From a virus (lineage: Duplodnaviria; Heunggongvirae; Uroviricota; Caudoviricetes), in IMG/VR virus record IMGVR_UViG_2529292906_000010: 47,757 bases of DNA; one strand, given 5' to 3'. Below the pieces are notes generated by a model, which saw only the letters and a list, made by a program, of their open reading frames with translations, did no database searches and was not told the DNA's origin. A program made the translations under genes and the position numbers. This document shows positions 1 through 47,757 of the stretch, in pieces (within the stretch, counting starts at the first letter, position 1; every line of letters starts with the position of its first letter).

Positions 1-1
1 G

Positions 2-226
2 GTTAAACGGATTTATACGGCAGATGAACAGCAACAACAGGCCGAATCACAAAAGGCCGCGTTACTTTCCGAAGCAGAAAGCGTTATTCAGCCACTGGAA
101 CGCGCTGTCAGGCTGAATATGGCAACGGATGAGGAACGCACACGACTGGAAGCATGGGAACGCTACAGTGTTCTGGTCAGCCGTGTGGATACGGCAAATC
201 CTGAATGGTCACAAAAGCCTGAATAA
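2..226 (+). CDS. tail fibre assembly protein (Tfa), C-terminal fragment; 5' end outside window
   Basis: Open frame from window edge to TAA 224-226; shares a VKRIYT-EEQ-QQAE core with the 255-788 Tfa but has a different C-terminus. Confidence 0.6.
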
Positions 227-232
227 AAATTA

Positions 233-250
233 AGGCCCGCTATCGGGCCT
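233..250. terminator. hairpin between convergent Tfa genes
   Basis: AGGCCCG-CTAT-CGGGCCT stem-loop between stops at 226 (+) and 255 (-). Confidence 0.35.
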
Positions 251-254
251 TGTC

Positions 255-788
255 TCATTCAGGTTGTTCGGGAAATGTTACTGGCAGGCTGGAGGTGTCT
301 GTGGATTCGACTTTCTGCGCATAGAGCATCCACTCGGTTAATTTTTGTTTATTCTCGTCGGAAATGATTCCCAGCCGTAGCTGTGAATCCCATAGCTGGG
401 TTTTATCCCTGACAAGTTGCAACAGGCTTTGCTTTTCATTCTCTGCCTGCTGCCTCTGTTCCTCCTCGGTATAAATTCGCTTTATCACTACTCCATCTTT
501 GAACTTCCATTTACCCGAAATATCAGCCCGGCGATTTGCTGTAATATCTGGAACCTCAACGACGCTTGCGCCTTCTGGATTAATTGCTGAAACATCCTTT
601 TCAATACAAATAATAACGTCGTTGTGGTCATAGACCATTTTCAACGTATCAGGCTGAAAGTTCTTTTGTTCCTCATACCAGTTTTTTCCATCATCTGAAT
701 AAAGCCATTTGATGTTAAATTGTTTCGTTAGCTGGTATTGCTCTTTTGTTTTAGGGTTGCCAGCAGTAATGTTTTTTAAGTGCATCAT
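255..788 (-). CDS. tail fibre assembly protein (Tfa), inverted copy
   Basis: 177-aa ORF; first 20 nt identical to the partial gene at 47738-47757; lies immediately downstream of the inverted fibre cassette. Confidence 0.8.
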   Translation of the reverse strand: MMHLKNITAGNPKTKEQYQLTKQFNIKWLYSDDGKNWYEEQKNFQPDTLKMVYDHNDVIICIEKDVSAINPEGASVVEVPDITANRRADISGKWKFKDGVVIKRIYTEEEQRQQAENEKQSLLQLVRDKTQLWDSQLRLGIISDENKQKLTEWMLYAQKVESTDTSSLPVTFPEQPE

Positions 789-790
789 AA

Positions 791-1486
791 TTAAATACTC
801 CCCGCGTTATACCACCTTCCATTAATGCAATACTGAATTGGCCTTGCCTGCGTTGTATCAATTAATTCATCACGGTTCCCGTTAACTGAACCCGTAACGA
901 CATAACCTGACCTGTCAGACCAGCCGGGACCATTCCATGTCTGAACAGATGACAGACCGCCAAGGCGAATACCTGTAATAAACCTTGAGTTACATTCTGC
1001 CTGTGTATATGCACCAACATCTCCTGCTGAAGGTTTTCGTGTCGTGGTATAGAAATCTGACCAACCTAATTCAAACCCATAACCATCACGAGCCGACCTG
1101 TAGGAAATGCCACCATTTTTATAATTCACACGGAATTGTACGGCAGGACAGCTACCAGCATTTATATTAAAGTGAAGAATTAATGCAGTTGCACCACCAA
1201 TTATGGCGTTATATGCACCACTATCCCAATTCCATCCAACGGATGTATCACCATTAACAGTATTACCTGTTTGTCGGAGTGCAAATGCATTGACATTTTT
1301 GGCACTAATTGAAATATCGCTAGAACCATCAAAACCAACTCCAGCAATTTTTCGTGCTGTTTTCAGCTTTGTTGCAGTAGCGGCATTGCCGGACAGTTCC
1401 CCAGAAAGGCCACCACTGAATGTTTGTCGATTGGTCCAGGTATTCGCCGTACTGAGTAACGGTATTTTTTCCCCGCTTGTGCCGAG
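791..1486 (-). CDS. silent tail-fibre C-terminal cassette (no own start; in-frame up to crossover site)
   Basis: Reverse complement of 47040-47735; translation identical to C-terminus of tail fibre 45702-47735 (NYKNGGISYRSARDGYGFELGW...RWYNAGSI). Confidence 0.7.
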   Translation of the reverse strand, partial: LGTSGEKIPLLSTANTWTNRQTFSGGLSGELSGNAATATKLKTARKIAGVGFDGSSDISISAKNVNAFALRQTGNTVNGDTSVGWNWDSGAYNAIIGGATALILHFNINAGSCPAVQFRVNYKNGGISYRSARDGYGFELGWSDFYTTTRKPSAGDVGAYTQAECNSRFITGIRLGGLSSVQTWNGPGWSDRSGYVVTGSVNGNRDELIDTTQARPIQYCINGRWYNAGSI

Positions 1487-1512
1487 TTCTCGTAAACCGA
1501 GGTTTTTGAGAA
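1487..1512. other. DNA invertase crossover site (gix/hix-like), invertase-proximal
   Basis: TTCTCGTAAACCGAGGTTTTTGAGAA; resembles gix/hix 26-bp sites as recalled; sits where inverted-repeat identity ends. Confidence 0.6.
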
Positions 1513-1576
1513 TTGCCTCTGTGTCGTCTGGACGATATTTTTTTCCGCTTTTAGCAACAATCGCGGTTTAGAAAGT

Positions 1577-2131
1577 ATGCAATATGGTTATGCGAGGGTG
1601 TCAACTTTTGACCAGAATTTGGAATTACAACTGGAGGCGCTCAGGAGTTCAGGATGTGACCGGATTTTTGAAGATAAAATATCCGGTGCTAAATCAAAAC
1701 GTCCAGGACTTGATAAGCTACTGAAGGTGTTACGACCGGGCGATACGGTTATTGTCTGGAAGCTGGACCGAATGGGGCGTTCTCTGATTCATCTTGTTGA
1801 TTTACTTAACCATTTTTTATCAAACAACATTGAGTTCATTTCGATTACGGAAGGAATAAAAATTAGCACTTCAATTGGCCGCTTTGCCTACACGATGCTG
1901 AGTGCAGTCGCAGAGATGGAGCGGGAAAATATGATTGAAAGAACGCGTGCAGGATTGGCGGTGGCAAGGGCTAACGGCAGGATAGGAGGACGCCGCTCAA
2001 AGCTGTCACCAGAGCAATGGGAACAGATCGGAAGGCTTATTGCGAATGGTGTTTCACGTAAGCGGATAGCGATTATCTTCGATGTTACTTTATCCACGCT
2101 TTACCGCAGGTTTCCGGCTGGGAATCATTGA
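1577..2131 (+). CDS. site-specific DNA invertase, Hin/Gin/Pin/Cin family serine recombinase
   Basis: 184 aa; N-terminal GYARVSTFDQ catalytic-serine motif; C-terminal HTH; adjacent to crossover site and fibre cassettes. Confidence 0.9.
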   Translation: MQYGYARVSTFDQNLELQLEALRSSGCDRIFEDKISGAKSKRPGLDKLLKVLRPGDTVIVWKLDRMGRSLIHLVDLLNHFLSNNIEFISITEGIKISTSIGRFAYTMLSAVAEMERENMIERTRAGLAVARANGRIGGRRSKLSPEQWEQIGRLIANGVSRKRIAIIFDVTLSTLYRRFPAGNH

Positions 2132-2312: not shown

Positions 2313-2440
2313 ATGGAAACAAAAAGCCCGCAGATAAATCTGCGGGCTTCTTGCGACATCCACGGAAAACCAACAACTAACCATGGGCGCCTCGACAACT
2401 CCCATTATACGTTGGTTTTCCGTGGACGCAAGAGCGAACA
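2313..2440 (-). ncRNA. candidate antisense control RNA of repA (CopA-like), with minus-strand terminator at 2322-2350
   Basis: Hairpin AGCCCGCAG-N6-CTGCGGGCT followed by a T-run on the minus strand; 15-bp stem 2360-2374/2411-2425 immediately upstream of the RepA start. Confidence 0.35.
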
Positions 2441-2441
2441 T

Positions 2442-3290
2442 ATGGATAGACCAATGCCGTCTCTACGTTCAGCTTACGTTTGTAATTTGTCGCCGGAGTT
2501 CCAGCCTCCAAAGCACCATACGCACAAGCTGCCGCTGGTGTTATCTGATGCTTTACAGCGCATTAATGGGCGTGATCTTACGTGTGAGGTTGCGTTCTAC
2601 GTTAATCAACCGTCAGAGCGGAAGCGCCGGATAAACGAGCATCGTCGTCGGGCGATTAATGCTGTGATCGCTGCGATTTTGCACCATGTAAACATCATTT
2701 CTAAGCGGGTTCTGGCTAGTGCTGAGGCGTTGGCTGATTTTTGCGGCCTGTCTACCGTATCCGAAGCTGGGAACAAGTCTATAACGCGCTGTACAAGGGC
2801 GTTGTCGCAACTGAAAGCGTTAGGTTTTATTGATTATGAACGTCGCTGGGATCGGGTGAATAAACAGTATTGGCCAGCGAAAATAGAGATTCGTGATCAA
2901 CTGCTGGAAACCGTTGGTATTACTGAACAAGCATGGAGACGTGCGGTTAGCCAGAAACTTAATTACTTCAATGCGAAGAATAGCGAACGGCTTAAAAAAG
3001 CGATAACGGAGGCTGATTATAAGCGTATTGTTATTCAGGAGCAGATGGAGAATGTATGGCGCCAGAGGAAGACGGCCAGAGAGATAAAGGCAAAACAGAA
3101 AGCAGCGGAGAGAGCTGCGCGTCTTGTCCGGGAAAAGGGAGAGGCCGAACTTCGTCATCAAATCACTAGAGAGGTTAGCCAGGAATTTGCTGATGGCATG
3201 TATCCAGGTGCTGACCTTGCATATTTACGATCCCTCGTTGAGCAGCGTTATAACAGGCTAAGAAAGACCTGGAAATCACTCCAACATTAA
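2442..3290 (+). CDS. repA: plasmid replication initiator RepA (IncFII RepA1-like)
   Basis: Recalled similarity to R100/R1 RepA1 (SITRCTRALSQLKALGFIDYE vs SITRATRALTFLSELGLITYQ); in-frame ATG at 2313 is an alternative start but overlaps the antisense hairpins. Confidence 0.75.
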   Translation: MDRPMPSLRSAYVCNLSPEFQPPKHHTHKLPLVLSDALQRINGRDLTCEVAFYVNQPSERKRRINEHRRRAINAVIAAILHHVNIISKRVLASAEALADFCGLSTVSEAGNKSITRCTRALSQLKALGFIDYERRWDRVNKQYWPAKIEIRDQLLETVGITEQAWRRAVSQKLNYFNAKNSERLKKAITEADYKRIVIQEQMENVWRQRKTAREIKAKQKAAERAARLVREKGEAELRHQITREVSQEFADGMYPGADLAYLRSLVEQRYNRLRKTWKSLQH

Positions 3291-4746: not shown

Positions 4747-5100
4747 TTGAGCATGTGGACGGTACTTTTTAGCCAGCGATTTGACGGCTGGCTAAATGAG
4801 CAAGAAGACGCTCTTCAGGAAAAGGTTTTGGCTGATTTGAAAAAGCTACAGGTTTACGGACCTGAGTTACCCAGGCCATATGCCGATACCGTAAAAGGTT
4901 CTCGGTACAAAAATATGAAAGAGCTTCGCGTTCAGTTTTCTGGCCGTCCGATAAGAGCCTTTTATGCGTTCGATCCGATTCGCCGGGCTATCGTTCTTTG
5001 TGCAGGAGACAAAAGTAACGATAAGCGGTTTTATAAAAAACTGGTGCGTATAGCTGAGGATGAGTTTGCAGCACATCTGAACACACTGGAGAGCAAGTAA
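4747..5100 (+). CDS. type II toxin, RelE/ParE superfamily (HigB-like)
   Basis: 117 aa; toxin-first arrangement with stop overlapping the HTH antitoxin start; probable ATG start at 4753. Confidence 0.65.
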   Translation: MSMWTVLFSQRFDGWLNEQEDALQEKVLADLKKLQVYGPELPRPYADTVKGSRYKNMKELRVQFSGRPIRAFYAFDPIRRAIVLCAGDKSNDKRFYKKLVRIAEDEFAAHLNTLESK

Positions 5101-5399
5101 TGAGAACATTAGATGAGGTGATTGCCAGCCGTTCACCGGAAAGCCAGGCGCGAATTAAAGAAATGGCAGATGAGATGATTCTTGAGGTCGGCTTGCAGAT
5201 GATGCGTGAAGAACTCCAGTTATCACAAAAGCAGGTTGCTGAGGCGATGGGTATAAGCCAGCCAGCAGTAACAAAGCTGGAGCAGCGCGGAAATGATTTA
5301 AAGCTGGCGACATTAAAGCGTTACGTTGAAGCTATGGGAGGCAAATTAAGCCTGGATGTTGAGCTTCCCACAGGAAAACGAATAGCGTTTAACATCTGA
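5100..5399 (+). CDS. HTH (XRE-family) antitoxin, HigA-like
   Basis: 99 aa; HTH segment LSQKQVAEAMGISQPAVTKLEQ; translationally coupled to upstream toxin. Confidence 0.65.
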   Translation: MRTLDEVIASRSPESQARIKEMADEMILEVGLQMMREELQLSQKQVAEAMGISQPAVTKLEQRGNDLKLATLKRYVEAMGGKLSLDVELPTGKRIAFNI

Positions 5400-5441: not shown

Positions 5442-5450
5442 TGCTCATGG

Positions 5451-5562
5451 AATTATATAATTATAGATTTATATAAAAAGTGCTTTACAGGTGGGAAAAT
5501 ATTTCCTAGTGTTATACCCGAAACCGAGCGATACCCGCCCTGGTTAAACCGGAGATAACCCG
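5451..5562 (+). promoter_or_regulatory. conserved promoter-leader element, copy A
   Basis: Near-identical to 14348-14464 and 22011-22122; contains TATAATTATA palindrome, TTTACA (-35-like), GGGAAAA(A/T)ATTTCC, conserved leader and GGAGA RBS. Confidence 0.5.
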
Positions 5563-5943
5563 ATGAGCATGATTAAAATCCGCAAAAACGCTTTCCTTAA
5601 AATTCAAACTATCCTGGCTGGTTCTGTTGGCGTGATTTGCCGTTCTTCTTCAAGCCGCATCGATGACGGCTACGATGATGAGTATCGTGTGTCCTCGTGC
5701 GATGAGGCTTTAACCTGGCTGAAGGAGAATCAGGAACGTGCCCAGGTATATCTGGAAACAGAGAACGGCAATCAGATGCTGCGTATTAGCGGTCGTTATG
5801 GATTTGAAACTACATTCATTGCCTATTTTAATCAGGTTTACTTTGACAAGGAGCTGGCCTGGTACACTGATCGCATGAGCAAAAGCGAGCCAGCTCCGAT
5901 TACACCGCCGAACAATAAACCATTTTTATTCCTCGTTAAGTAA
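5563..5943 (+). CDS. hypothetical protein
   Basis: 126-aa ORF immediately after leader copy A. Confidence 0.5.
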   Translation: MSMIKIRKNAFLKIQTILAGSVGVICRSSSSRIDDGYDDEYRVSSCDEALTWLKENQERAQVYLETENGNQMLRISGRYGFETTFIAYFNQVYFDKELAWYTDRMSKSEPAPITPPNNKPFLFLVK

Positions 5944-7086: not shown

Positions 7087-8229
7087 TTATGGTCTGCTTT
7101 TCTGTGCCAGCTTATCAGCACATGTTTTTATCAGATCCTGTAGTGTCCTGGCTGGCAGGTTTGCATCCAGTACGCTGAGTATGCTGTTGTGATCTGCTTG
7201 GTCGACTACTTTGCCTGTCGGTGGTAGTAGCTTGAGCTGAGGATTCAGGTTTTCGTCAAAACTGATAAGTGCTCTGGCGTTTCTGAGCAGATCAAGAAGT
7301 AAGGCTGATATCACATCATCTTTAGTCATTGTTGGTAGATTTAGTGCCGCTTTAGTTTTCTCCGTCGCCTTGTCAAACTCTTTGATTAGTGTCTTGCGGT
7401 AGTTTGGTTCCGTTAATAGCCGATGATGTTCTGTTGCCGTTCGGATAATCTTTGTTTCCTGATACAGTCGGTTGTATAGCATTCGCTCGTATTCTGCCTT
7501 TAACACGCTGCTGATAGCGTTAAAGGCTTCAATGTAGGCCAGCTTGATATCCTTCACGCCTGGACCGTCGATACTTTCCATGAGCAAGGTAAATCCGTCT
7601 TTTGTCATGCGATAGATTGTTATTTCGCGGTCGCTTCCTTCCAGCGGTCGTTGTTCTTTAAAGAAGTGACGCGCCGCAGCCGTGCGAGGAATGCGTAACG
7701 CATCGATGGCCATAACGATGGAATTGTTTGTGGTGCTGAATGCTTGGGCAACATCGGCTGAGGTTGTGAGTGGCTCGTTGTTGCACACCTTAACGTAATA
7801 CATTGGTTTAGCGTTGAGCGTATCGACAACCTCACGAGCATTGTTTGGTGAGACGGTTACGGTCGCGGCCGTTTGCGCGTTCTGGTTGAAGTAGCAGTCT
7901 TCCAGCCGTTCGAATACATCCCATGCCTGATCGGTTTCGAGCATTTTAGCGTGACGTGCAGCCCCGCGTTCGGTCCAGAGGATGAGCTTTCTAACGTTAT
8001 TCGCGATGGTTTGAAAATCTCTTAAAGAGATTTTCAAACTTTGGAGATCTGTACCTTTTACAACTATGAAATGTTTTCCTTCTGTAAACCGGGACTTATT
8101 ACGGTGGTGATTTCTGTGAAGACATTCGACGCTACAGCCATATAGTTTGGCAAGCAGCTCCGTGGTGATAACGGGGAGCTGCTTATGCAGGATAGGCTGT
8201 AGGGTGTTAACGGTCGGAAGCGTTTTCAT
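7087..8229 (-). CDS. phage antirepressor (ORF6N/Rha-like N-terminus)
   Basis: 380 aa; N-terminal region resembles ORF6N/Rha antirepressor domains as recalled. Confidence 0.65.
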   Translation of the reverse strand: MKTLPTVNTLQPILHKQLPVITTELLAKLYGCSVECLHRNHHRNKSRFTEGKHFIVVKGTDLQSLKISLRDFQTIANNVRKLILWTERGAARHAKMLETDQAWDVFERLEDCYFNQNAQTAATVTVSPNNAREVVDTLNAKPMYYVKVCNNEPLTTSADVAQAFSTTNNSIVMAIDALRIPRTAAARHFFKEQRPLEGSDREITIYRMTKDGFTLLMESIDGPGVKDIKLAYIEAFNAISSVLKAEYERMLYNRLYQETKIIRTATEHHRLLTEPNYRKTLIKEFDKATEKTKAALNLPTMTKDDVISALLLDLLRNARALISFDENLNPQLKLLPPTGKVVDQADHNSILSVLDANLPARTLQDLIKTCADKLAQKSRP

Positions 8230-8417: not shown

Positions 8418-8582
8418 TGTGATGATTCCCTTAAAGGTTAAGGATACTCACCACCGTCAGGTTCCAATCATTGGGTGGTGAGACGTGCAGGGTTGGAACT
8501 ACCGGACACAATGACGAACCGGCGAGTCTTACGACTCCCCCGCACGCCCCACCATAATTTGGGTGTAGCAGTGCTTTACGCA

Positions 8583-8690
8583 TAAAAAAACCGCTAACGC
8601 GGTATGCGCCATTGTGTCTACGGGGTTCCAATCCCGACCGTAGATTTTGCTACGGCTCGGAAAGTGTCCACCAATGGCGCATTCATGTCA
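8583..8690 (-). ncRNA. candidate structured small RNA upstream of antirepressor operon
   Basis: Minus-strand hairpins (GCGCCATTG/CAATGGCGC; TCTACGG/CCGTAGA) ending in CCGCGTTAGCGG + T7 terminator at 8583-8605; no ORF. Confidence 0.25.
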
Positions 8691-9173
8691 ATACGGCGGG
8701 ATTTTAACAGAGACAACCACATAGCGTGGGTTTATTGGTAGGCAGAAACAAAAAAACCGCCCTATTGAGGACGGTTCTTTCGTGCTGATCGGATTCGCGG
8801 TCCTTTCAGCATTACGTTGTTGTATAAACAACCACGCAAGCACAAGCAGCAAGTTAATTTTACCCAAAAGGTAATAATAGTCCACTATTATGCTTCAAAA
8901 AATTGTGGTTCTTGTTGTGCCTGCAAACTCACAGATTGTGGGTAGGTTACTGATTTTGTGAAAATAAACGAGTTTTTTCGTTTAATTTCTTTCCTATTAC
9001 TAATCTTAAAATAATCGTAAAATACCTGTGGACCTTCCCGCCGATTCGCACCCGGGCACCGACTTTAGGGGAGGATTCTCCGTTGCCGTACATGCAAGCA
9101 CAAGCAGCCGTGCTTGCTCTCGCGTTGTTTTCGTCGGTGGGGATGCCGTGAAACGGCCTGTAAGGGCCATACA

Positions 9174-9296
9174 ATGAAAAAATACTGTATGTGTATTTTT
9201 ATCGTTGTTACTGGAGCTTTGTTTACGCCACATGGGGAGGGTTGGAAGATTACTGATAACGCTCTGAATGTGACGATAAACATTAGCAGCAAGTAG
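9174..9296 (+). CDS. small hydrophobic protein (40 aa)
   Basis: MKKYCMCIFIVVTGALFT... with AAGGG RBS; followed by terminator at 9302-9325. Confidence 0.3.
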   Translation: MKKYCMCIFIVVTGALFTPHGEGWKITDNALNVTINISSK

Positions 9297-9301
9297 CGAT
9301 T

Positions 9302-9325
9302 AGGCCCCTTCGGGGGCCTTTTTTA
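9302..9325. terminator. hairpin terminator
   Basis: AGGCCCC-TTCG-GGGGCCT followed by TTTTTT. Confidence 0.6.
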
Positions 9326-14347: not shown

Positions 14348-14464
14348 ATCTATAAATATATAATTATAGATTTATATAAAAAGTGCTTTACAGGTGGGAA
14401 AAAATTTCCTAAGGTTATACCCAAAACCGAGCGATACCCGCCCTGGTTAAACCGGAGAAATCTG
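14348..14464 (+). promoter_or_regulatory. conserved promoter-leader element, copy B
   Basis: Near-identical to copies A and C; TATAATTATA core at 14359-14368. Confidence 0.5.
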
Positions 14465-15532
14465 ATGAATAAACAAGTAATTATTTCTGACTGGATCAAC
14501 AACCCTAACAGCCTGTTGAGCACTGATACTGGCTATAGATTACGTCATGTTAATGGCCGTATGGTCAAAAGCGATGAGCACGAAACCTTTTTCGTTGTTG
14601 AAGACGATGGACGTCTTTATGAGGATGGTCACTCTTATGAATCCCAAACAGGTTGTATCCCTGCAGAGTTGGTAGACGTAACAGAAAAGCTGCGCAAAGC
14701 ATGGCTTGAACAGCAGCAGCGCGGAGATGATTACGTAAATACCTATCAGGAACGCCAGAACGCGCGTCTTGCCCGATATATTGCTCGTGCAGAAAAAGCC
14801 AGAAAAGAAGGTGCGGTGGCGCATAAGCGAGCGCATGAACTGTTGGATGTGATCCCGTTAGGCCAGCCGATTTTAGTTGACCATTATAGCGCGAAAGGCC
14901 ATCGCCGCCGTTTGTCTAAAGCTGATGCGTTATTCAGAAAATCGTTTGTTGAGTGTGAAAGCAGAGCATCGTACTACGAAAGCAAAGCCGCAGGTGTCGG
15001 CCGTAATGGAGTTTCGTCTGATGATCCTGATGCGCTATTTAAGTTGCTTCGTAAGCTGCAAGGCTGCATGAAGTCACACATCAAAATGAAGGCCGCAAAT
15101 AAGGCTATTCGCAAATACAAAAAAGACCAATTACAGCAGCTTTCCGCATTAATTGACCTTGAGTTTACTGAAAGCGAAGCCAAAGGGTTACTCGCCGGAG
15201 ATTTCTGTGGGCACATTGGCTTCCCTTCATACTCACTGAGTAACAATAATGCCGAAATCAAACGACTACAGAGCCGTATTAAGGAGCTTGAATCGGTCAA
15301 GTCTGTAACAGGAGCACAGCGCGAAGAATACGACGGCTTTTCTATGGAGATAGATCCAGAGGATAACCGTATCCTGTTTTATTTCCCTGGCAAACCAGAG
15401 GCAAACATTCGTTCGCTGCTTAAATCACGCGCCTTTAAGTGGAGTCCAACCCGTAATGCATGGGTTCGCAAGATTACTCCAAACGCCCTGGCTGATGCCC
15501 GATATCTGAAAGAATCGCTATTGAAAGCCTGA
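14465..15532 (+). CDS. hypothetical protein (356 aa)
   Basis: Starts at ATG 14465 after GGAGA RBS; the longer ORF from 14315 would read through the leader. Confidence 0.6.
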   Translation: MNKQVIISDWINNPNSLLSTDTGYRLRHVNGRMVKSDEHETFFVVEDDGRLYEDGHSYESQTGCIPAELVDVTEKLRKAWLEQQQRGDDYVNTYQERQNARLARYIARAEKARKEGAVAHKRAHELLDVIPLGQPILVDHYSAKGHRRRLSKADALFRKSFVECESRASYYESKAAGVGRNGVSSDDPDALFKLLRKLQGCMKSHIKMKAANKAIRKYKKDQLQQLSALIDLEFTESEAKGLLAGDFCGHIGFPSYSLSNNNAEIKRLQSRIKELESVKSVTGAQREEYDGFSMEIDPEDNRILFYFPGKPEANIRSLLKSRAFKWSPTRNAWVRKITPNALADARYLKESLLKA

Positions 15533-19943: not shown

Positions 19944-20472
19944 GATTTTTAACAGCGTTCTTGGAAAAGAGGGCGGCTATGTGGATCACCCTGACGACAA
20001 GGGAGGCCCAACAAAGTGGGGCATTACTCAGAACACTGCCCGTGCTCATGGATACCGTGGCGATATGCGCGATTTAACCCGCGAACAGGCACTGGAAATC
20101 CTTGAGGCTGATTACTGGTACGGACCACGCTTTGATCAGGTGGCCGCATTATCCTCTGATATTGCCGCAGAGCTGTGTGACACGGGGGTGAACATGGGGC
20201 CAACAGTGGCGTCAAAAATGCTTCAACGCTGGCTGAATGTGTTCAACCTGCGCGGGAAGCTGTATCCCGATTTGGATGCAGACGGACGAATCGGTCCACG
20301 TACCATTAATGCGCTACGTGCTTATCTTGGGAATCGGGGAAAAGACGGCGAACGGGTGATGCTGACGTCGCTGAACTGTACGCAGGGCGAACGCTATCTG
20401 GAGCTGGCGGAGAAGCGCGAGGCTAATGAGTCGTTTGTCTACGGCTGGATGAAAGAGCGAGTGGTGGTATGA
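19930..20472 (+). CDS. endolysin, GH108-type N-acetylmuramidase with peptidoglycan-binding domain
   Basis: GGYVDHPDDKGGPTKWGIT signature near N-terminus. Confidence 0.85.
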   Translation: MTKDEIFNSVLGKEGGYVDHPDDKGGPTKWGITQNTARAHGYRGDMRDLTREQALEILEADYWYGPRFDQVAALSSDIAAELCDTGVNMGPTVASKMLQRWLNVFNLRGKLYPDLDADGRIGPRTINALRAYLGNRGKDGERVMLTSLNCTQGERYLELAEKREANESFVYGWMKERVVV

Positions 20473-20747
20473 CTGGTTTGAAAGCCGTTTTGTCATTTAT
20501 CGGCACCGTTATATTGGTTGCATTCGGTGCGTTTGGTTTTGGTCGTATGAAGGGGCGAGAAAAGGCCGAAGATGAAGCTGAAAAGCAGCGCATTAATGAG
20601 AATGCAGCCGCCGTAAAAGCCACTGCGGAGCGGCGTATAGAAGTGACAAAAGAGGTGGGGAATGTACAGCAGAGTGTTAACCATATGGCTGATGACGATG
20701 TTGATCGCGAGCTGCGGGAGTCGTGGAAGCGTCCCGGTGGTGGTTGA
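20469..20747 (+). CDS. i-spanin (Rz-like)
   Basis: N-terminal TM helix then charged coiled-coil; directly after endolysin. Confidence 0.6.
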   Translation: MTGLKAVLSFIGTVILVAFGAFGFGRMKGREKAEDEAEKQRINENAAAVKATAERRIEVTKEVGNVQQSVNHMADDDVDRELRESWKRPGGG

Positions 20748-20871
20748 TACCGCCTGTGATTGGGTAAAGCCCATCTACCTGACTGATCACGACATCGATG
20801 TTATGGACCGCCAGACAAAGAAAGATATTCTGGCTCATAACAGGGCATGGGAAATCAACTGCCGAAAGTAA
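20662..20871 (+). CDS. o-spanin (Rz1-like lipoprotein), overlapping i-spanin
   Basis: Lipobox LIASC; probable start at internal Met (20692/20698). Confidence 0.55.
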   Translation: MYSRVLTIWLMTMLIASCGSRGSVPVVVDTACDWVKPIYLTDHDIDVMDRQTKKDILAHNRAWEINCRK

Positions 20872-20912
20872 TATATATTTCTATAATTATATAAATATAT
20901 AGTTACAACATT
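20871..20912. repeat. TATAATTATA palindrome site G
   Basis: Core at 20882-20891 in AT-rich DNA after lysis cassette. Confidence 0.45.
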
Positions 20913-20946
20913 CTATGCGCTTTTCTCATGGCGCACGCATCAACCA

Positions 20947-21029
20947 TGTTTGTCTGATATGCCGCCGCGCCCAAAAATCCTGAATTTATTGGCTGGGATT
21001 TTCGTGCGCGGCGCCACACCAGACAAACA
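20947..21029. repeat. long imperfect inverted repeat upstream of tRNA
   Basis: TGTTTGTCTG...GCCGCCGCGC (20947-20970) pairs with GCGCGGCGC...CAGACAAACA (21006-21029); loop has AAAATCC/GGATTTT. Confidence 0.4.
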
Positions 21030-21039
21030 AATCAAATAT

Positions 21040-21115
21040 GGCCCCTTAGCTTAGTGGTTAGAGCAGGCGACTCATAATCGCACGGTCATCGGTTCAAATC
21101 CGGTAGGGGCCACCA
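21040..21115 (+). tRNA. tRNA with CAU anticodon (Met or Ile2/lysidine type)
   Basis: 76-nt cloverleaf: acceptor GGCCCCT/AGGGGCC, anticodon loop CTCATAA, T-loop GGTTCAAATCC, 3' CCA; recalled as close to E. coli tRNA-Ile2. Confidence 0.8.
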
Positions 21116-21423
21116 ATTCACCCTCACACATAAAGATAAGCGCGGTGGAGTTACTTCTTCGTGCTCATCTTTATGCGTGCCTGGTGCACATTTCGGGAAG
21201 CCGTTGGTTAGTGAGTACAGGCAGGGCCTGTTATCCGCAAAGGGGTAAAAGCTGGAGCGGCACGGAACTGTAGCCGTGTTACCAAAACAGCGTTGTCGGG
21301 CGATATCCGGCACACAACAGGCAAGGGCATTAATCAGTCTGGTTAGTGCCCTTTTCGTTGTGTCTGCTGTAGAGCTGGCCAGCGTTATGACTGCCGGAGA
21401 TAAGCGCCGGAGGCACAACTAAC

Positions 21424-22011
21424 ATGGAGGCAATTGCATTGTTTAATCTGATTTATGCAGATCCCCCCTGGGAATACAAAGATAAGTGTAAGGATGGGAA
21501 TCGTGGAGCTGGTTTTAAGTATCCAACGATGAAAGCTGAGGATATTGCTCGTATTCCTGTCTGGCAGCTTGCTAATCCTGAATCGTGTTTGTTGGCCATG
21601 TGGTGGGTTCCGACTCAGCCAGAAGAAGCGTTGCTGGTGGTGAAAGCATGGGGATTCAGGCTTATGACCATGAAGGGCTTCACATGGAACAAATGTGGTA
21701 GCCGACAACCAGATAAGCTGGTGATGGGGATGGGGCATATGACTCGTGCAAACAGTGAAGATTGCTTGTTTGCGGTAAAAGGCAAATTGCCGACCCGCCT
21801 TGATGCGGGGATCATTCAGTCGTTTACATCGCCTCGTCTGGAGCATTCTCGGAAGCCTGATGTGGTTCGTGACAAGCTGGTAAGGCTGTTAGGTGATGTT
21901 CCTCGTATTGAGCTGTTTGCTCGCGGTGATTTACCTGATGGTTGGCATGGCTGGGGCAACCAGTGCAATGGAGGTATCCAGTTGCATGATGCTCTCTGGC
22001 AAGTGGCATAG
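21424..22011 (+). CDS. orphan N6-adenine DNA methyltransferase, MT-A70 family
   Basis: DPPW motif (IYADPPWEY) near N-terminus; no adjacent restriction endonuclease. Confidence 0.75.
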   Translation: MEAIALFNLIYADPPWEYKDKCKDGNRGAGFKYPTMKAEDIARIPVWQLANPESCLLAMWWVPTQPEEALLVVKAWGFRLMTMKGFTWNKCGSRQPDKLVMGMGHMTRANSEDCLFAVKGKLPTRLDAGIIQSFTSPRLEHSRKPDVVRDKLVRLLGDVPRIELFARGDLPDGWHGWGNQCNGGIQLHDALWQVA

Positions 22012-22122
22012 AATTATATAATTATAGATTTATATAAAAAGTGCTTTACAGGTGGGAAAAAATTTCCTAAGGTTATACCCGAAACCGAGCGATACCCGCC
22101 CTGGTTAAACCGGAGAAATCTG
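22011..22122 (+). promoter_or_regulatory. conserved promoter-leader element, copy C
   Basis: Near-identical to copies A and B; core at 22017-22026. Confidence 0.5.
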
Positions 22123-22419
22123 ATGAAAGTACAAGACCGTGAAGTAGTAAAAAACCTCCTGCAATACCTGACCTCAAAAAACCTGACGGGCAGCGTTGAG
22201 TTCCGTGAAGCGTTAAAACATTTCAACGTCACTACGGTTTATCGTTGGGAAAACAAACATTCTGAAAGACCGTATGTGGTGGATGTTTTTGCGCCTGATA
22301 TTGAGTGCGGTTTTGAGCGTCATTCGTTCAAGGAGAAACATTCTGCTGATTTTTTTGTGAGGTTGTATGTGCGGCAGGAGATGATGAGTGATGCGTATTT
22401 CCTTCAAACGTGCGACTGA
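22123..22419 (+). CDS. hypothetical protein
   Basis: 98-aa ORF after leader copy C. Confidence 0.5.
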   Translation: MKVQDREVVKNLLQYLTSKNLTGSVEFREALKHFNVTTVYRWENKHSERPYVVDVFAPDIECGFERHSFKEKHSADFFVRLYVRQEMMSDAYFLQTCD

Positions 22420-38578: not shown

Positions 38579-41370
38579 ATGGCCAGCAATAAGAACTTTA
38601 AGCTGGCTTTTGAAATTGGCGGCAAAGTTGCCGCCTCTCTCCCCAAAAGTTTTACTACAGCTAATCAGGCTGTTGCTAAATTAAATGCCGAGCTTGCTGG
38701 ATTAACGAAAGAACATGGGGAAATTCAAAAGCTACAATCTGTAAAAGTAAAGGTTGGACAGACTGCCCTCGAATATCATAAAGCTGCCGCTCGCGTTGAA
38801 GAGTTACAGAAGCAAATAAAAAACACGGCCAATCCAACCAGAGCGATGCTTCGTGACTTTGAGAAGGCAAAAACACATTCATCGAATTTACGAGCATCAC
38901 TACGTTCTCAGCGTGAAGAACTGGCCGCTTTAAAGTCTGCCTATCAGGGAGCTGATACATCTGCCAGAGCTTTGGCCTCAAGAGAGAAAGAGCTTAAAGC
39001 CAGCATTGATCGTAATCGTGAGGCTCAGGCCCGTAGCGTTGAGCAGGTTAACCGCTACAGAACGGCTTTGGCTTTAGCCAGAGCAAATGTTCAGCAAGTG
39101 AAAAACAGCAGGAGGAACTTAACCGGGCATTAGAAAAACAACGTATTGATAAAATTAACAGCTATAAAAATGCGTTGGCTGAAGCACGGAAAAATGTTCT
39201 TGCAGTAAAACGTGCTCAGGAGGAGTTAAACCGCGCGTTGGAAAGGCAGCGTGAATTGAAGCGAGAGCATCTTGGTGAGGCAAAGAGTCAACTTGTAAGG
39301 ACAGGATTACAAACTGGTGCTGTAGCGGCTGGTGCATTTGCTGCTGCTAATAATGCAGCAAATTTTAATCGTGAAAACAAAATGATTGGTCTTACGGCAG
39401 ATATGAAGCCGGAGGAAGTTCAGGCGATGGGGCAAGCGATGCTTGTTACCGGGGCGGCTACCAACCAGTTTGCATCTGATATTCAGGCCGCTCAGGGTTT
39501 TCTTGTCGCTGCTGGGCAGGATTATAAAGAGGCTCAGGCGAATCTACTAACTATTGGGCGAACAGCTACAGCTACTGGCTCTGATATCCTCGATGTCTCG
39601 AAAGCATCATTTACATTAAGTGACTCATTGAAGATTGATCCATCTCAAATGAAGTCTGCAATGGGGATTCTGGTTCAGGCAGGGAAAGAGGGAAACTTTG
39701 AATTTAAAGATATGGCCAAAAATCTTCCTGTGCTTGGTGCTCAGTTCCAGGCATTAAAAATGGGAGGTAAAGAAGCCGCCGCGACGATGGGGGCAGCTTT
39801 GCAGATAGCTCGCAAAGGTGCTGCAACTTCGGATGAGGCTGCTAATAATATGAACAACTTTTTGGCGAAAATACTTTCCCCTGAAACACTAAAAAAAGCA
39901 AAGAAAAATTTCGGTGTAGATTTATATAAAATTGTCACAGCAGCGCAGAAAAAAGGGAAGAATCCATTCGAAGCTGCAATGCATTCTGTCATGAAAATGA
40001 CTAAGAACGGAGATCAGAAGTTACTTGGTGAGCTATTTGGCGATATGCAGGTTCAGAACTTTGTTCGTCCGATGATTCAAAACTGGAAGGAATACCAGAG
40101 AATCAAAGCAACATCTCTTGGAGCTGGAAGTGCTGTTATTGACCGCGATTTTGCCAACATAACGAAAGATAATGCGGAGCGATTGAAACAATTACGTATT
40201 CAGGCTAGCAATGCATCATTAAGTTTTGGTCAGGCCTTGCAACCTGCTTTAAATGCCGCGCTTAGTGTTTTGGTTCCGCTGATTACAAAAATCAGTGAAT
40301 TTGTAGCTAACAACCCCAATTTTGTTTCTCAGATTGTGATGGCGGCAGGTGCGTTTCTAACCATGAAAAGTGTGGTTATAGCGTGTAGGGTAGCTATGCT
40401 GGCTTTATCTGTAGCGACAAAGCTAACCCCTTTCGGGTGGATTCAGATGGCCATATCAGCCATTGTGGCGTTAGGTATATTGTTGTATCAGAATTGGGAT
40501 AAAATAAAAGAATGTGCATCAAAAGTTTGGCCTGCTATTAAGGATTACACTGTTAAGTCTTTTGAGACTATAAAAAACTTTATCTTAAACTTTGATCTCA
40601 ATGGATGGATTATATCTATGTTTGGTAAAGCATGGTATTATCTTTCCAACATAAACTGGAGTTCGGCAGGAGTAAGAATTTACAGTGCATTAATTAGTGC
40701 TTTTAAATGGATGTCTCCGCTTCCGTTCTTAATTAAAGCATTTAAACTTACAACAAATTACCTTTCTGGCATTAACTGGAGCGAAACAGGAAAGAAAATC
40801 ATAGATACACTGGTGTCTGTTTTTATGCGTTTTTCGCCAGTTGGACTATTTATAAGAGCATTCCAATCTGTAACGGCTTATTTATCTGGAATAAACTGGA
40901 GTGAGTCAGGTGCAAAAATAATTGAGACGTTAATCACTGGGATAAAATCAAAAGCAAATGCTTTAATTAATGAAGTGAAAGGCGTTTTTTCTTCTGTACG
41001 TGAGTATTTACCGTTCTCTGACGCGAAAAAAGGTCCATTCTCACAGCTAACAAAGTCAGGTGGTGCAATAATGACTACTCTGGCATCAGGTGTTAGCAGG
41101 AATAACAGCTTACAGAATGCAATAGCAACCAAGTTCGGGCAATCAAATTTATCACCTCACGGGATATCTGCCGCCGGGACTTCTGGACCTCGCCAGAACG
41201 TTAACGCTGTGACTGGTGGAATAACCTATTCACCTGTAATCAATCTTCCGGCTGGTTCACCAAAGGAAACTGAGGCGGCAGCTAAAAGAGCATTAGATGC
41301 GGGATATTCTGATTTTGAGAAGAAATTGAGTGCTCATATGTTCCAACAACGGAGATTAAGTTTTGGATGA
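38579..41370 (+). CDS. tail tape measure protein; frame interrupted in A5 run at 39101-39105
   Basis: Coiled-coil N-terminus continues across the apparent stop at 39131 in the -1 frame; C-terminal TM and GINWSE repeats. Confidence 0.8.
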
Positions 41371-45701: not shown

Positions 45702-47735
45702 GTGAGTAAATTATTATTTACGATGACTGACGCCGGGCGTCAGGAGTTGGTTAATGCCAACAAAACAGGAACAAATAAAGTTGAGATTGTTTCTGTTGGT
45801 TTAGGTGGTAGATATTATGTCACGTCAACCTCACAAACAAATATAACAAACGAAATAAAACGACTTACCACAATAGGTGGCAAAGTTGTTTCCCCTGATA
45901 CAATTCATGTAACGGCGAAGGATGATAGTAAAGATGAGTATGTTGTCCATACAATAGGATTGTATACAAATAAGGGAACGTTGTTTGCTGTATACTCGCA
46001 AGAACAAGCAATAATAAATAAAGCATCATCTACTATTGCTTTAATATCAAGTGACATAGCAATCAAGACTCTTGATACTAAAAATATTATATTTGGTGAT
46101 GTTGAGTTTATTAATCCTCCCGCGACCGAAACTGTTGTTGGGGTTGCAAGATTTGCTAATGAACAAGAAATTGATGCAGGTACAGATGATTCCCTTGCTG
46201 TTTCAGCAAAGCGGCTTAAGCAAGCCATTGTGAAACATGAGCAATCACGTAATCATCCTGATGCAACTTTAACCTCAAAAGGCTTTGTTCAACTTAGCAG
46301 CGCCACCAATAGCACGTCTGAAACGCTTGCTGCGACGCCTAAGGCTGTTAAGGCAGCATATGACCTGGCTAACGCTAAATACACCGCACAGGACGCTACC
46401 ACTGCGCGGAAAGGGATAGTTCAGCTCAGTAGCGCCACCAACAGCACGTCTGAAACGCTTGCGGCAACGCCAAAGGCTGTTAAGGCGGCATATGACCTGG
46501 CTAATGGCAAATACACCGCACAGGACGCTACCACTGCGCGGAAAGGGATAGTTCAGCTCAGTAGCGCCACCAACAGCACATCTGAAACGCTGGCTGCGAC
46601 GCCAAAAGCTGTTAAGGCGGTAATGGATGAAACGAACAAGAAAGCGCCCTTAAACAGTCCTGCGCTGACCGGAACGCCAACAACGCCAACTGCGCCAAAA
46701 GGGACTAATAATACTCAGATCGCAAGCACGGCTTATGTGATGGCCGCGATTGCCGCACTTGTAGACTCGTCGCCTGACGCACTGAATACGTTGAACGAGT
46801 TAGCGGCGGCGCTGGGAAACGACCCGAATTTTGCGACCACCATGACTAAAGCGCTTGCGGGTAAGCAACCGAAAGATGCCACTCTGACGGCGCTGGCCGG
46901 GCTTGCTACTGCGGCAGACAAGTTTCCGTATTTTACGGGGAATGATGTCGCCAGCCTGGCAACCCTGACAAAAGTCGGGCGGGATATTCTTGCGAAATCG
47001 ACCGTTGCCGCTGTTATCGAATACCTCGGTTTACGAGAACTCGGCACAAGCGGGGAAAAAATACCGTTACTCAGTACGGCGAATACCTGGACCAATCGAC
47101 AAACATTCAGTGGTGGCCTTTCTGGGGAACTGTCCGGCAATGCCGCTACTGCAACAAAGCTGAAAACAGCACGAAAAATTGCTGGAGTTGGTTTTGATGG
47201 TTCTAGCGATATTTCAATTAGTGCCAAAAATGTCAATGCATTTGCACTCCGACAAACAGGTAATACTGTTAATGGTGATACATCCGTTGGATGGAATTGG
47301 GATAGTGGTGCATATAACGCCATAATTGGTGGTGCAACTGCATTAATTCTTCACTTTAATATAAATGCTGGTAGCTGTCCTGCCGTACAATTCCGTGTGA
47401 ATTATAAAAATGGTGGCATTTCCTACAGGTCGGCTCGTGATGGTTATGGGTTTGAATTAGGTTGGTCAGATTTCTATACCACGACACGAAAACCTTCAGC
47501 AGGAGATGTTGGTGCATATACACAGGCAGAATGTAACTCAAGGTTTATTACAGGTATTCGCCTTGGCGGTCTGTCATCTGTTCAGACATGGAATGGTCCC
47601 GGCTGGTCTGACAGGTCAGGTTATGTCGTTACGGGTTCAGTTAACGGGAACCGTGATGAATTAATTGATACAACGCAGGCAAGGCCAATTCAGTATTGCA
47701 TTAATGGAAGGTGGTATAACGCGGGGAGTATTTAA
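45702..47735 (+). CDS. tail fibre protein (constant N-terminal part plus invertible C-terminal cassette from ~47040)
   Basis: 677 aa; three tandem ~44-aa fibre repeats; C-terminal 232 aa identical to the inverted cassette 791-1486. Confidence 0.9.
   Translation: MSKLLFTMTDAGRQELVNANKTGTNKVEIVSVGLGGRYYVTSTSQTNITNEIKRLTTIGGKVVSPDTIHVTAKDDSKDEYVVHTIGLYTNKGTLFAVYSQEQAIINKASSTIALISSDIAIKTLDTKNIIFGDVEFINPPATETVVGVARFANEQEIDAGTDDSLAVSAKRLKQAIVKHEQSRNHPDATLTSKGFVQLSSATNSTSETLAATPKAVKAAYDLANAKYTAQDATTARKGIVQLSSATNSTSETLAATPKAVKAAYDLANGKYTAQDATTARKGIVQLSSATNSTSETLAATPKAVKAVMDETNKKAPLNSPALTGTPTTPTAPKGTNNTQIASTAYVMAAIAALVDSSPDALNTLNELAAALGNDPNFATTMTKALAGKQPKDATLTALAGLATAADKFPYFTGNDVASLATLTKVGRDILAKSTVAAVIEYLGLRELGTSGEKIPLLSTANTWTNRQTFSGGLSGELSGNAATATKLKTARKIAGVGFDGSSDISISAKNVNAFALRQTGNTVNGDTSVGWNWDSGAYNAIIGGATALILHFNINAGSCPAVQFRVNYKNGGISYRSARDGYGFELGWSDFYTTTRKPSAGDVGAYTQAECNSRFITGIRLGGLSSVQTWNGPGWSDRSGYVVTGSVNGNRDELIDTTQARPIQYCINGRWYNAGSI
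46281..46620 (+). repeat. tandem 132-bp repeats within tail fibre gene (~2.6 copies)
   Basis: GGGATAGTTCAGCTCAGTAGCGCCACCAACAGCAC... recurs at 46413 and 46545. Confidence 0.7.
47014..47039. other. DNA invertase crossover site (gix/hix-like) inside tail fibre gene
   Basis: Reverse complement TTCTCGTAAACCGAGGTATTCGATAA; inverted-repeat identity with 769-1500 begins at 47026. Confidence 0.6.
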
Positions 47736-47737
47736 TT

Positions 47738-47757
47738 ATGATGCACTTAAAAAACAT
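47738..47757 (+). CDS. tail fibre assembly protein, first 6 codons (3' end outside window)
   Basis: ATGATGCACTTAAAAAAC identical to the start of the inverted Tfa at 788. Confidence 0.5.

Follow-up and report, generated by a model that had tools for sequence, protein, structure and literature searches.

Organization of the locus

The window, the whole stretch of 47,757 nucleotides analysed here, is an entire draft WGS contig (AIFV01000057.1, assembly GCA_000249595.2), and both of its ends are therefore assembly breaks. Systematic homopolymer under-calls identify it as being of draft quality. Its replicon genes encode ParA, ParB and an IncFII-type RepA, and its baseplate and tail genes are P2-like. 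The features of interest lie at its two ends:

2..226, plus strand: 3' fragment of the chaperone gene UB, of Mu U type, 74 codons and the stop; about 302 nt of its 5' part are lost at the contig start
232..251, no strand: G+C-rich hairpin between the convergent chaperone genes, terminator-like AAGGCCCGATAGCGGGCCTT followed by a T run
255..788, minus strand: chaperone UA, 177 aa, of Mu U' type; complete, in silent orientation at this contig end
791..1498, minus strand: silent fibre C-terminus SvA', the exact reverse complement of 47028-47735, without a promoter or start codon of its own
1487..1512, no strand: gixR, TTCTCGTAAACC-GA-GGTTTTTGAGAA, core dinucleotide 1499-1500, no mismatch to the gix pattern
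1577..2131, plus strand: serine DNA invertase of 184 aa, encoded immediately beyond gixR, outside the invertible segment
45702..47735, plus strand: tail-fibre gene, 677 aa; constant part Sc to 47025, continuing in frame across gixL into the SvA tip (47026-47735)
47014..47039, no strand: gixL, TTATCGAATACC-TC-GGTTTACGAGAA, core 47026-47027, one mismatch to the gix pattern
47023..47757, plus strand: terminal duplicate, the DNA of 769-1503 flipped, comprising SvA with its stop codon and 20 nt from the start of UA, and reaching the contig end

The tail-fibre gene, with start codons at 45702 (GTG) and 45723 (ATG), encodes Phage_fiber_2 repeats (Pfam) and a tip that matches the C-terminus of Mu S' (PDB 8JU3, E = 3.8e-96); on its way into this tip it reads through gixL, which encodes the fibre residues ...IEYLGLRE.... 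This copy is presumably the expressed one. The silent copy, followed in the fibre frame, has a stop codon upstream of the site, 24 codons away, and its first start codon is a GTG at 1129. The alternative tip, SvB, is not part of the contig; relatives do have complete second cassettes.

A first-pass annotation of this DNA had recognized Tfa genes with different C-termini at 2-226 and 255-788 and a serine invertase of the Hin/Gin family at 1577-2131, and domain and structure matches bear out both assignments. The two chaperones are members of Caudo_TAP (E = 1.2e-22 for the UB fragment, 6.1e-36 for UA), and their C-termini do differ. The UB fragment corresponds to residues 102-175 of Mu U (PDB 5YVQ_B, E = 6.7e-40), with position 1 of the window falling on nucleotide 303 of the homologous chaperone gene in CP099184, while UA matches the same structure with E = 1.8e-63 and lies within a stretch of about 91% identity to the features U' and S' of the Mu record. 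The hairpin between them is probably a bidirectional terminator that closes whichever cassette is expressed; in the D108 record, two terminators are annotated in the matched region, the other features there being U, U' and S'.

The invertase, at 184 aa close to the ~185-195 aa usual for small serine recombinases of the Gin/Cin/Hin/Pin group, contains the Pfam domains Resolvase (N-terminal and catalytic, E = 2.7e-44) and HTH_7 (C-terminal, E = 4.7e-14) and aligns end to end with the structures of Gin (3UJ3, E = 6.5e-62; 4M6F, E = 1.6e-60) over residues 2-181. Its N-terminus, MQYGYARVST, aligns to VLIGYVRVST of Gin with conservation of the Y-x-R-V-S-T motif and, within it, of Ser9, the catalytic serine of Gin (PMC3575834). 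Overall it is 54% identical to Mu Gin, 55% to P7 Cin and 99% to the invertases of the circular relatives described below. In gin, cin and hin, a Fis-bound recombinational enhancer is located in cis in the 5' part of the invertase gene. Fis-like 15-mers occur at +78 and +101 of the window's invertase gene, the same positions as in Mu gin, but scanning of the gene's 5' part revealed no Fis-like pair at the expected 48-bp spacing. The region aligned to the annotated enhancer of P7 (cin +19 to +86) is conserved to an extent not above coding constraint.

Crossover sites and the terminal duplicate

Compared with the gix sites of Mu, the imperfectly palindromic 26-bp sites of the window, which are inverted relative to each other, are identical at 22 of 26 positions in gixL and at 23 of 26 in gixR, with length and GA/TC core in common, which agrees with the earlier proposal that they are crossover sites of a known invertase type. 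The gix pattern matches the window at these two sites only, with no match expected from shuffles, although this count is partly circular, as the pattern was built from the Mu gix sites together with the window's own two. The outer half-site of gixL is identical in all relatives examined. The gix inner half-site is GGTTTACAGGAA; between the two cassettes, there are probably two nucleotide differences in the inner half-site, ACGAGAA versus ACAGGAA. A third crossover site was considered at 454-479, inside UA, where the sequence is loosely gix-like, and was rejected, as it has no similarity to a gix half-site. The 454-479 string itself recurs in all relatives and in Mu.

Positions 769-1503 and 47023-47757 are perfect reverse complements over 735 nt, without a single mismatch, and thereby slightly exceed the 732 bp (769-1500 versus 47026-47757) reported in the first pass; a match of this length cannot have arisen by chance. 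When 769-1512 is aligned to the reverse complement of 47014-47757, the arms extend to 744 nt, as also returned by a repeat search, with three mismatches (1504, 1507 and 1510) in the last 9 nt and random matching further out. Identity between the arms thus decays where it had been said to, within the two sites at 1487-1512 and 47014-47039: perfect identity stops at 1503, and differences occur only in the outer half-sites. At the opposite end, the repeat is cut off by the end of the window, not by divergence, 20 nt into the UA chaperone gene (ATG at 47738). The contig accordingly ends 302 nt into UB on one side and 20 nt into UA on the other. A repeat shared by the chaperone genes was rejected as the cause of these breaks, with UA and UB being only about 70% identical over their first 300 nt.

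Replicon and relatives

On a circular relative of 49,027 bp, window 1492-26869 aligns to 23235-49027 and window 26870-47034 to 1-20203, whereas 1,288 nt of the relative (20209-21496) are without counterpart in the window. From this collinearity it follows that the window is cut inside the invertible segment of that relative. Similarity to the backbone relatives ends at 47034, within gixL. Judged by these alignments, the window is a circular permutation of circular phage-plasmids of about 48-49 kb, and the roughly 1.2-1.3 kb absent from the contig is, on the same comparison, the second fibre tip SvB together with the 5' part of UB. Adding this piece to the window yields about 48.3 kb, which matches the size of the relatives' family. 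Literature searches for how this 48-kb phage-plasmid family is named or described yielded only P1-like and SSU5-like elements, or nothing.

Each of 15 relative loci has one segment of about 3.0 kb with different cassettes on the left and on the right; in CP099184 the segment measures 4.0 kb and includes an IS3 insertion. None of the 15 contains the 0.7-kb cassette twice, and by blastn at most 56 nt are common to the two segment ends. CP099184 has SvA (98% identical) at the invertase side only and another cassette at gixL. In the plasmid of E. coli ATCC 25922, the site-proximal repeat measured 83 nt, against 41 nt in Mu; that of Xuanwuvirus 520873 has 33 nt. Two assemblies of the ATCC 25922 plasmid, each of 48,488 bp, are 99.97-100% identical apart from 3,071 bp that are inverted between them; the inner half-sites have traded places and the outer ones are unchanged. 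Close relatives have therefore undergone inversion with the exchange confined to the core of the site. Among the other loci, six are oriented one way and five the other.

Comparison with known switches

The arrangement is that of the G segment of Mu: Sc, gixL, Sv and U come first, then U' and Sv', which are encoded on the opposite strand, then gixR and, outside the segment, the invertase. Over window 2-1250, DNA identity to the 3' end of Mu U, to U' and to S' amounts to 91%, and translation of the gixL sequences yields ...LGL... in the fibre frame for the window and for Mu alike. The window differs from Mu in its invertase, only about 54% identical to Gin, in the site-proximal 240 nt or so of SvA (1250-1486), which are not Mu-like, and in its backbone: Mu is a transposable phage, the window a plasmid prophage of 48 kb with RepA and with baseplate and tail genes resembling those of P2.

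With the C segment of P1 and P7, the window shares the plasmid prophage, the invertible segment of fibre tip and chaperone, and the adjoining serine invertase; window 2-1250 is 92% identical to the C segment of P7. However, the cix core is AA/TT, versus GA/TC in the window, and the backbones differ in size (about 101 kb versus 48 kb) and have unrelated replicons. The P7 segment is about 4 kb long with imperfect repeats of 198 and 129 nt, whereas segments in the window's family have about 3.0 kb and repeats of at most 83 nt. The repeat of the window does not show the architecture of the P1 C type, in which site-adjacent repeats of several hundred bp encode a proximal portion common to both Sv and then give way to divergent tips. 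Nor was the layout of multiple-inversion systems such as p15B Min and the R64 shufflon, with at least three sites, found: there are two sites per relative locus and two in the window, the latter count covering the 47,757 nt of the contig.

The closest matches to the segment itself are in the P2-like Xuanwuvirus phages 520873 and P884B11 of Escherichia, with 95.6-95.8% identity over window 1-1512, ending at gix. The outer half-site on the Sc side of 520873 is TTATCGAATACC, identical to that of the window. These phages possess a complete SvB-UB-UA'-SvA' segment and an invertase, and by analogy their segment probably shows the form of the window's absent 1.2 kb. They differ from the window in belonging to another phage family (Peduoviridae, 37.6 kb, linear record) and in their invertase, which is Gin-like, about 54% identical to the window's and on the opposite strand. 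The similarity to them stops at the site, and the invertase lineage of the window (54% to Gin) might conceivably have captured a cassette of Xuanwuvirus type by exchange at the gix core.

The replicon family of the window is that of the ATCC 25922 plasmid (48,488 bp) and the Yersinia phages vB_YpM_39, vB_YpM_41 and vB_YpM_44, with 97-99% identity in the backbone, 99% in the invertase, and outer half-sites with no more than 1 nt of difference. In these, however, another Sv' lies beside the invertase, and window 1250-1491 is unmatched. On sequence grounds, the system of the window is a further instance of the textbook switch of Gin/Cin type, with SvA and UA of Mu S'/U' type and UB of Mu U type.

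Discussion

What can be concluded from a cassette that appears at both ends of a contig in opposite orientation? The window contains the architecture of an invertible segment and, in a single contig, both of its junctions, Sc-gixL-SvA and SvA'-gixR-invertase. As a doubled cassette occurs in none of the 15 relatives, and as the segment is found inverted between the two ATCC 25922 assemblies, we read the duplication as one DNA present in both orientations, that is, as heterogeneity among the reads and not as two physical copies. The window is thus, in our view very probably, the draft contig of a circular phage-plasmid of about 48.3 kb and E. coli type, with a switch of the Mu G-segment type that was captured in both orientations.

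In such a system, transcription of the late operon would read Sc, cross gixL, enter the adjoining tip and chaperone cassette and stop at the central hairpin. The invertase, made from the gene just beyond gixR, would bind the two inverted 26-bp sites, cut the central GA/TC dinucleotide via Ser9, rotate the ends by 180 degrees and religate them, presumably in dependence on Fis and the enhancer. The resulting flip of about 3 kb would replace SvA/UA (S'/U' type) by SvB/UB (Mu S/U type), and its likely effect would be a change in the range of hosts to which the phage adsorbs. The duplication suggests that the sequenced culture held both orientations, in which case the assembler may have run into the one SvA cassette twice, once on leaving the fibre gene and once on leaving the invertase gene, before it stopped, leaving out the 1.2-1.3 kb of SvB and the 5' part of UB.

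The main alternative is that each plasmid molecule carries SvA-UA twice, the copies forming a perfect inverted repeat within the segment, 0.74 kb or longer, in a layout resembling the P1 C segment or nearly palindromic, perhaps with extra cassettes between the copies. As the contig ends inside the repeat, its sequence alone would fit a second physical copy, and P7 sets a precedent with its inverted repeats of 198 and 129 nt beside the cix sites. These, however, show 87-88% identity and do not extend beyond the site-proximal part of Sv, whereas the repeat of the window is perfect and spans the receptor-binding tip, the stop codon and the start of the chaperone, so that the same fibre would result from both orientations. 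The cassette is doubled at none of the 15 relative loci, measured repeats have 83, 41 and 33 nt, and CP099184, the sole relative with SvA, carries a different cassette at gixL. Moreover, the window together with the absent piece is already of family size. If true, this would be a near-palindromic or multi-cassette switch of the G type, unlike any of the 15 relative loci; we consider it very unlikely.

The terminal duplicate could also be a foldback or chimera that arose during library preparation or assembly. Site-specific recombination would then have had no part in it, and it would tell nothing about heterogeneity in orientation. Assemblies are known to produce inverted duplications at the ends of contigs as artefacts, and this contig, with its systematic homopolymer errors, is a draft. 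Yet a random foldback would not pick the position of the gix core, at which the junction lies and yields an in-frame fusion of Sc and SvA; the same fusion constitutes the expressed fibre in Xuanwuvirus 520873, where the outer half-site is identical. Such an origin is hardly credible. Finally, a linear replicon with genuine terminal inverted repeats, for which one arm at the very 3' end of the window could speak, was rejected as next to impossible, given that the other arm begins 768 nt from the 5' end and leaves the ends asymmetric, that the deposited records of close relatives, of which the window is a permutation, are circular, and that the RepA, ParA and ParB genes indicate a circular plasmid prophage.

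The reading of one segment in two orientations bears on the choice that the first-pass annotation had left. Its tail-fibre switch of Gin/Hin type is supported by the match of the invertase to Gin, by the gix sites and by the identity to the Mu G segment, and its circular replicon, with an assembly that broke in the inverting segment, by the nature of the window as a whole contig, the collinear circular relatives and the inversion in ATCC 25922. The other option that it offered, flanking inverted repeats of about 0.7 kb as in the P1 C segment, finds no support in relatives whose repeats are short. The contig is then to be taken as a nearly complete circle that lacks about 1.2-1.3 kb; to treat it as linear, or as carrying long inverted repeats, would be a misreading. 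Where contig ends carry the same DNA in opposite orientation and the match breaks off at a gix core, this may accordingly be read as the mark of an active invertible segment and a culture of mixed orientation. To the biology of these switches the window adds little: it would be a further case of the host-range switch of Mu G and P1 C, residing on a common 48-kb phage-plasmid of E. coli.

An inverted duplicate bounded by two crossover sites

What does the inverted duplicate at the two ends of the window represent? The reverse complement of positions 769-1503 is identical to 47023-47757 at all 735 nt, confirming the first-pass annotation, which had placed the same cassette inverted at both ends. 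A repeat search extends the arms to 744 nt (769-1512 and 47014-47757); three of the 9 added positions are mismatched (1504, 1507, 1510) and the sequences are unrelated farther out, so that identity is indeed lost at the two 26-bp gix-like sites, as had been proposed. At the other side, the repeat is truncated by the window end and not through divergence. It contains the final 236 fibre codons, the stop codon (47733-47735) and the 20 nt opening the next gene. Perfect identity covers the inner half-site (that within the invertible segment) and the core dinucleotide, then runs on for three symmetric bases into the outer half-site, limits as predicted from exchange at the central 2 bp.

Features of the switch region, with the Mu sites for comparison
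2-226: 3'-terminal 74 codons of a different chaperone, matching Mu U residues 102-175 (PDB 5YVQ_B, E = 6.7e-40)
232-251: G+C-rich hairpin between the convergent chaperone genes
255-788 (-): complete tail-fibre assembly chaperone, 177 aa
791-1498 (-): tip copy; reading frame closed by a stop 24 codons upstream of the site and lacking a start codon until 1129
1487-1512: gixR (invertase side), TTCTCGTAAACC-GA-GGTTTTTGAGAA
1577-2131: serine recombinase, 184 aa, Resolvase and HTH_7 domains
2313-3290: IncFII-type RepA
47014-47039: gixL (fibre side), TTATCGAATACC-TC-GGTTTACGAGAA
Mu gixL: TTATCCAAAACC-TC-GGTTTACAGGAA
Mu gixR: TTCCTGTAAACC-GA-GGTTTTGGATAA

The switch is of a well-known kind. Residues 2-181 of the recombinase align with 3UJ3 and 4M6F, both crystal structures of Gin (E = 6.5e-62), and catalytic Ser9 is retained (YARVST, YVRVST in Gin), which together with the domains bears out its assignment to the Hin/Gin family; its identity is 54% to Gin of Mu and 55% to Cin of P7. 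The sites themselves align with known invertase crossover sites: gixL and gixR share 22 and 23 of 26 positions with those of Mu, including the GA/TC core, whereas the cix core of P7 is AA/TT. A gix pattern search of the window returned these two sites only, where shuffles lead to an expectation of none, a count that is partly circular as the pattern was built from the Mu sites and the window's own two. The DNA of 2-1250 is ~91-92% identical to Mu, D108 and P7, where U, U' and S' are annotated; the fibre tip 3' of gixL matches the Mu S' C-terminus (PDB 8JU3, E = 3.8e-96), and the two chaperones are distinct, as first suggested. With its upstream stop and lack of an early start codon, the tip copy at 791-1498 is expressible only after inversion.

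The window as a permuted circle

An exact-protein look-up finds the fibre gene at the same coordinates on contig AIFV01000057.1 (assembly GCA_000249595.2, 47,757 bp). The window is thus the whole draft contig, and both its ends are contig ends. Circular, complete records collinear with it are those of Yersinia phages vB_YpM_39 and vB_YpM_41 and of many ~48-49 kb E. coli plasmids. In a 49,027-bp circular relative, window 1492-26869 corresponds to 23235-49027 and 26870-47034 to 1-20203; the window is therefore a circular permutation, cut at a point inside that circle's invertible segment. Without counterpart in the window is a 1,288-nt stretch of the circle, 20209-21496 (1,202 nt for its equivalent in Xuanwuvirus 520873), which comprises the second fibre tip along with the 5' portion of that tip's chaperone gene. 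Added to window 1-47039, it gives ~48.3 kb, the size of the relatives' family. An internal repeat as the cause of the contig end points is ruled out, the two chaperone genes being only ~70% identical.

With RepA in the window and ParA, ParB, terminase, portal, capsid, sheath and a P2-like baseplate annotated in relatives, the element is a phage-plasmid. The interval 4747-5399, downstream of repA, encodes a toxin of RelE/HigB type (Gp49 family in relatives) paired with an HTH antitoxin, consistent with plasmid maintenance. Rfam matches to C4 antisense RNA, isrK and ryfA adjoin an ORF6N/Rha antirepressor gene (group coordinates 8471-8559 (-), 8584-8656 (-), 9028-9324 (+), 7087-8229 (-)), resembling the immI-type immunity module of P1/P7. 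A conserved cassette of promoter and leader, ~120 nt long and each time ending at ATG, occurs at 5448-5574, 14351-14477 and 22009-22135, preceded by TATA-rich repeats TTATATAATTATAGATTTATATAA with ~10 occurrences in the window; further positions listed with these elements are 9808, 10516, 10589, 15557, 20863 and 39898. They are probably an operator/promoter set common to early or middle operons. The fibre gene's constant part contains three tandem 132-nt repeats (Phage_fiber_2; 46278-46673), and the tape-measure gene three repeats spaced 120 nt (40638-40919).

The contig is of draft quality. Compared with two different relatives, homopolymers of 5-8 nt are under-called by one base at 31827, 39101, 6785, 6845, 11791, 19084, 19117 and 22350; the first two interrupt the portal gene and, at 38579-41370, the tape-measure gene, which is left as 184 and 731 aa. 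These under-calls look like pyrosequencing-type error, not gene decay.

Origin of the duplicate and inversion in the family

That the segment flips in the window's plasmid family is seen directly. Between two independent assemblies of the E. coli ATCC 25922 plasmid (CP158444, CP009073), each 48,488 bp and 99.97-100% identical to the other, the sole difference is an inversion of 3,071 bp, with fibre and chaperone genes swapped in the annotation. Their inner half-sites differ by one base (GGTTTA vs GGTTTG). This marker changes place on inversion and the outer half-sites remain stationary, which places the exchange within ~9 nt around the core; in other loci, six are in one marker state and five in the other. 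Two invertase-region copies per molecule occur in NZ_CP032086.1 (94,204 bp, ATCC 25922) and CAJDEG010000021.1 (80,705 bp; L009, L010), which are possibly multimeric plasmids or misassemblies, with both orientations perhaps present side by side.

Of the two readings first offered, an assembly break within an actively inverting segment is supported, by the circular permutation and by the inversion in the ATCC 25922 plasmid. The other, P1-like long repeats of ~0.7 kb, is not. The cassette is present twice in 0 of 15 relative loci. Each of these is a single segment with one gixL and one gixR as its borders, ~3.0 kb long except in CP099184, where an IS3 insertion brings it to 4.0 kb; left and right cassettes are unlike, and the segment ends share at most 56 nt in this test. 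The ATCC 25922 plasmid has a site-spanning inverted repeat of 83 nt; in Mu this measures 41 nt, and in Xuanwuvirus 520873 it is 33 nt. The P7 C segment has repeats of 198 and 129 nt, 87-88% identical and limited to site-proximal Sv (the variable tip), whereas the window's repeat is perfect and takes in the receptor-binding tip, stop codon and chaperone gene start. Both window sites bear the same inner half-site, an arrangement absent from all the complete relatives; among backbone relatives, the window's cassette occurs in CP099184 alone (98% identity), on the invertase side, and another cassette and inner half-site lie at gixL there. Two physical copies, from which either orientation would yield the same fibre, are thus improbable, even though the contig terminates inside the repeat. 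A technical foldback or chimera is less probable still, as the junction lies at the gix core and restores an in-frame fusion found as an expressed fibre in Xuanwuvirus 520873. A linear replicon with terminal repeats is hardly credible, given that 768 nt separate one arm from its window end and that the relatives form circles.

The element is mosaic in composition. Its invertible DNA (1-1512), 91% identical to Mu and 96% to Xuanwuvirus 520873, loses that similarity at the gix site; the segment is thus 91-96% identical in DNA to Mu/P2-like phages, though the invertase acting on it shares only ~54-55% identity with Gin, Cin and the Xuanwuvirus enzyme. This difference suggests exchange of cassettes, at or close to the crossover sites, among unrelated phages.

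Gin dimers bind two sites and then synapse, are activated by Fis on an enhancer, and cleave both strands with a phosphoserine-DNA link before 180-degree rotation and religation (PMC3575834). The window's invertase would follow the same course of site binding, synapsis, cleavage, rotation and religation, presumably including a Fis and enhancer step. In its gene, Fis-like 15-mers at +78 and +101 coincide in position with those of Mu gin, and no pair shows the 48-bp spacing expected; the stretch that aligns with the enhancer annotated in P7 cin (+19 to +86) has no conservation beyond what coding constraint accounts for. By homology to Mu S/U and S'/U', the switch would be expected to affect host range.
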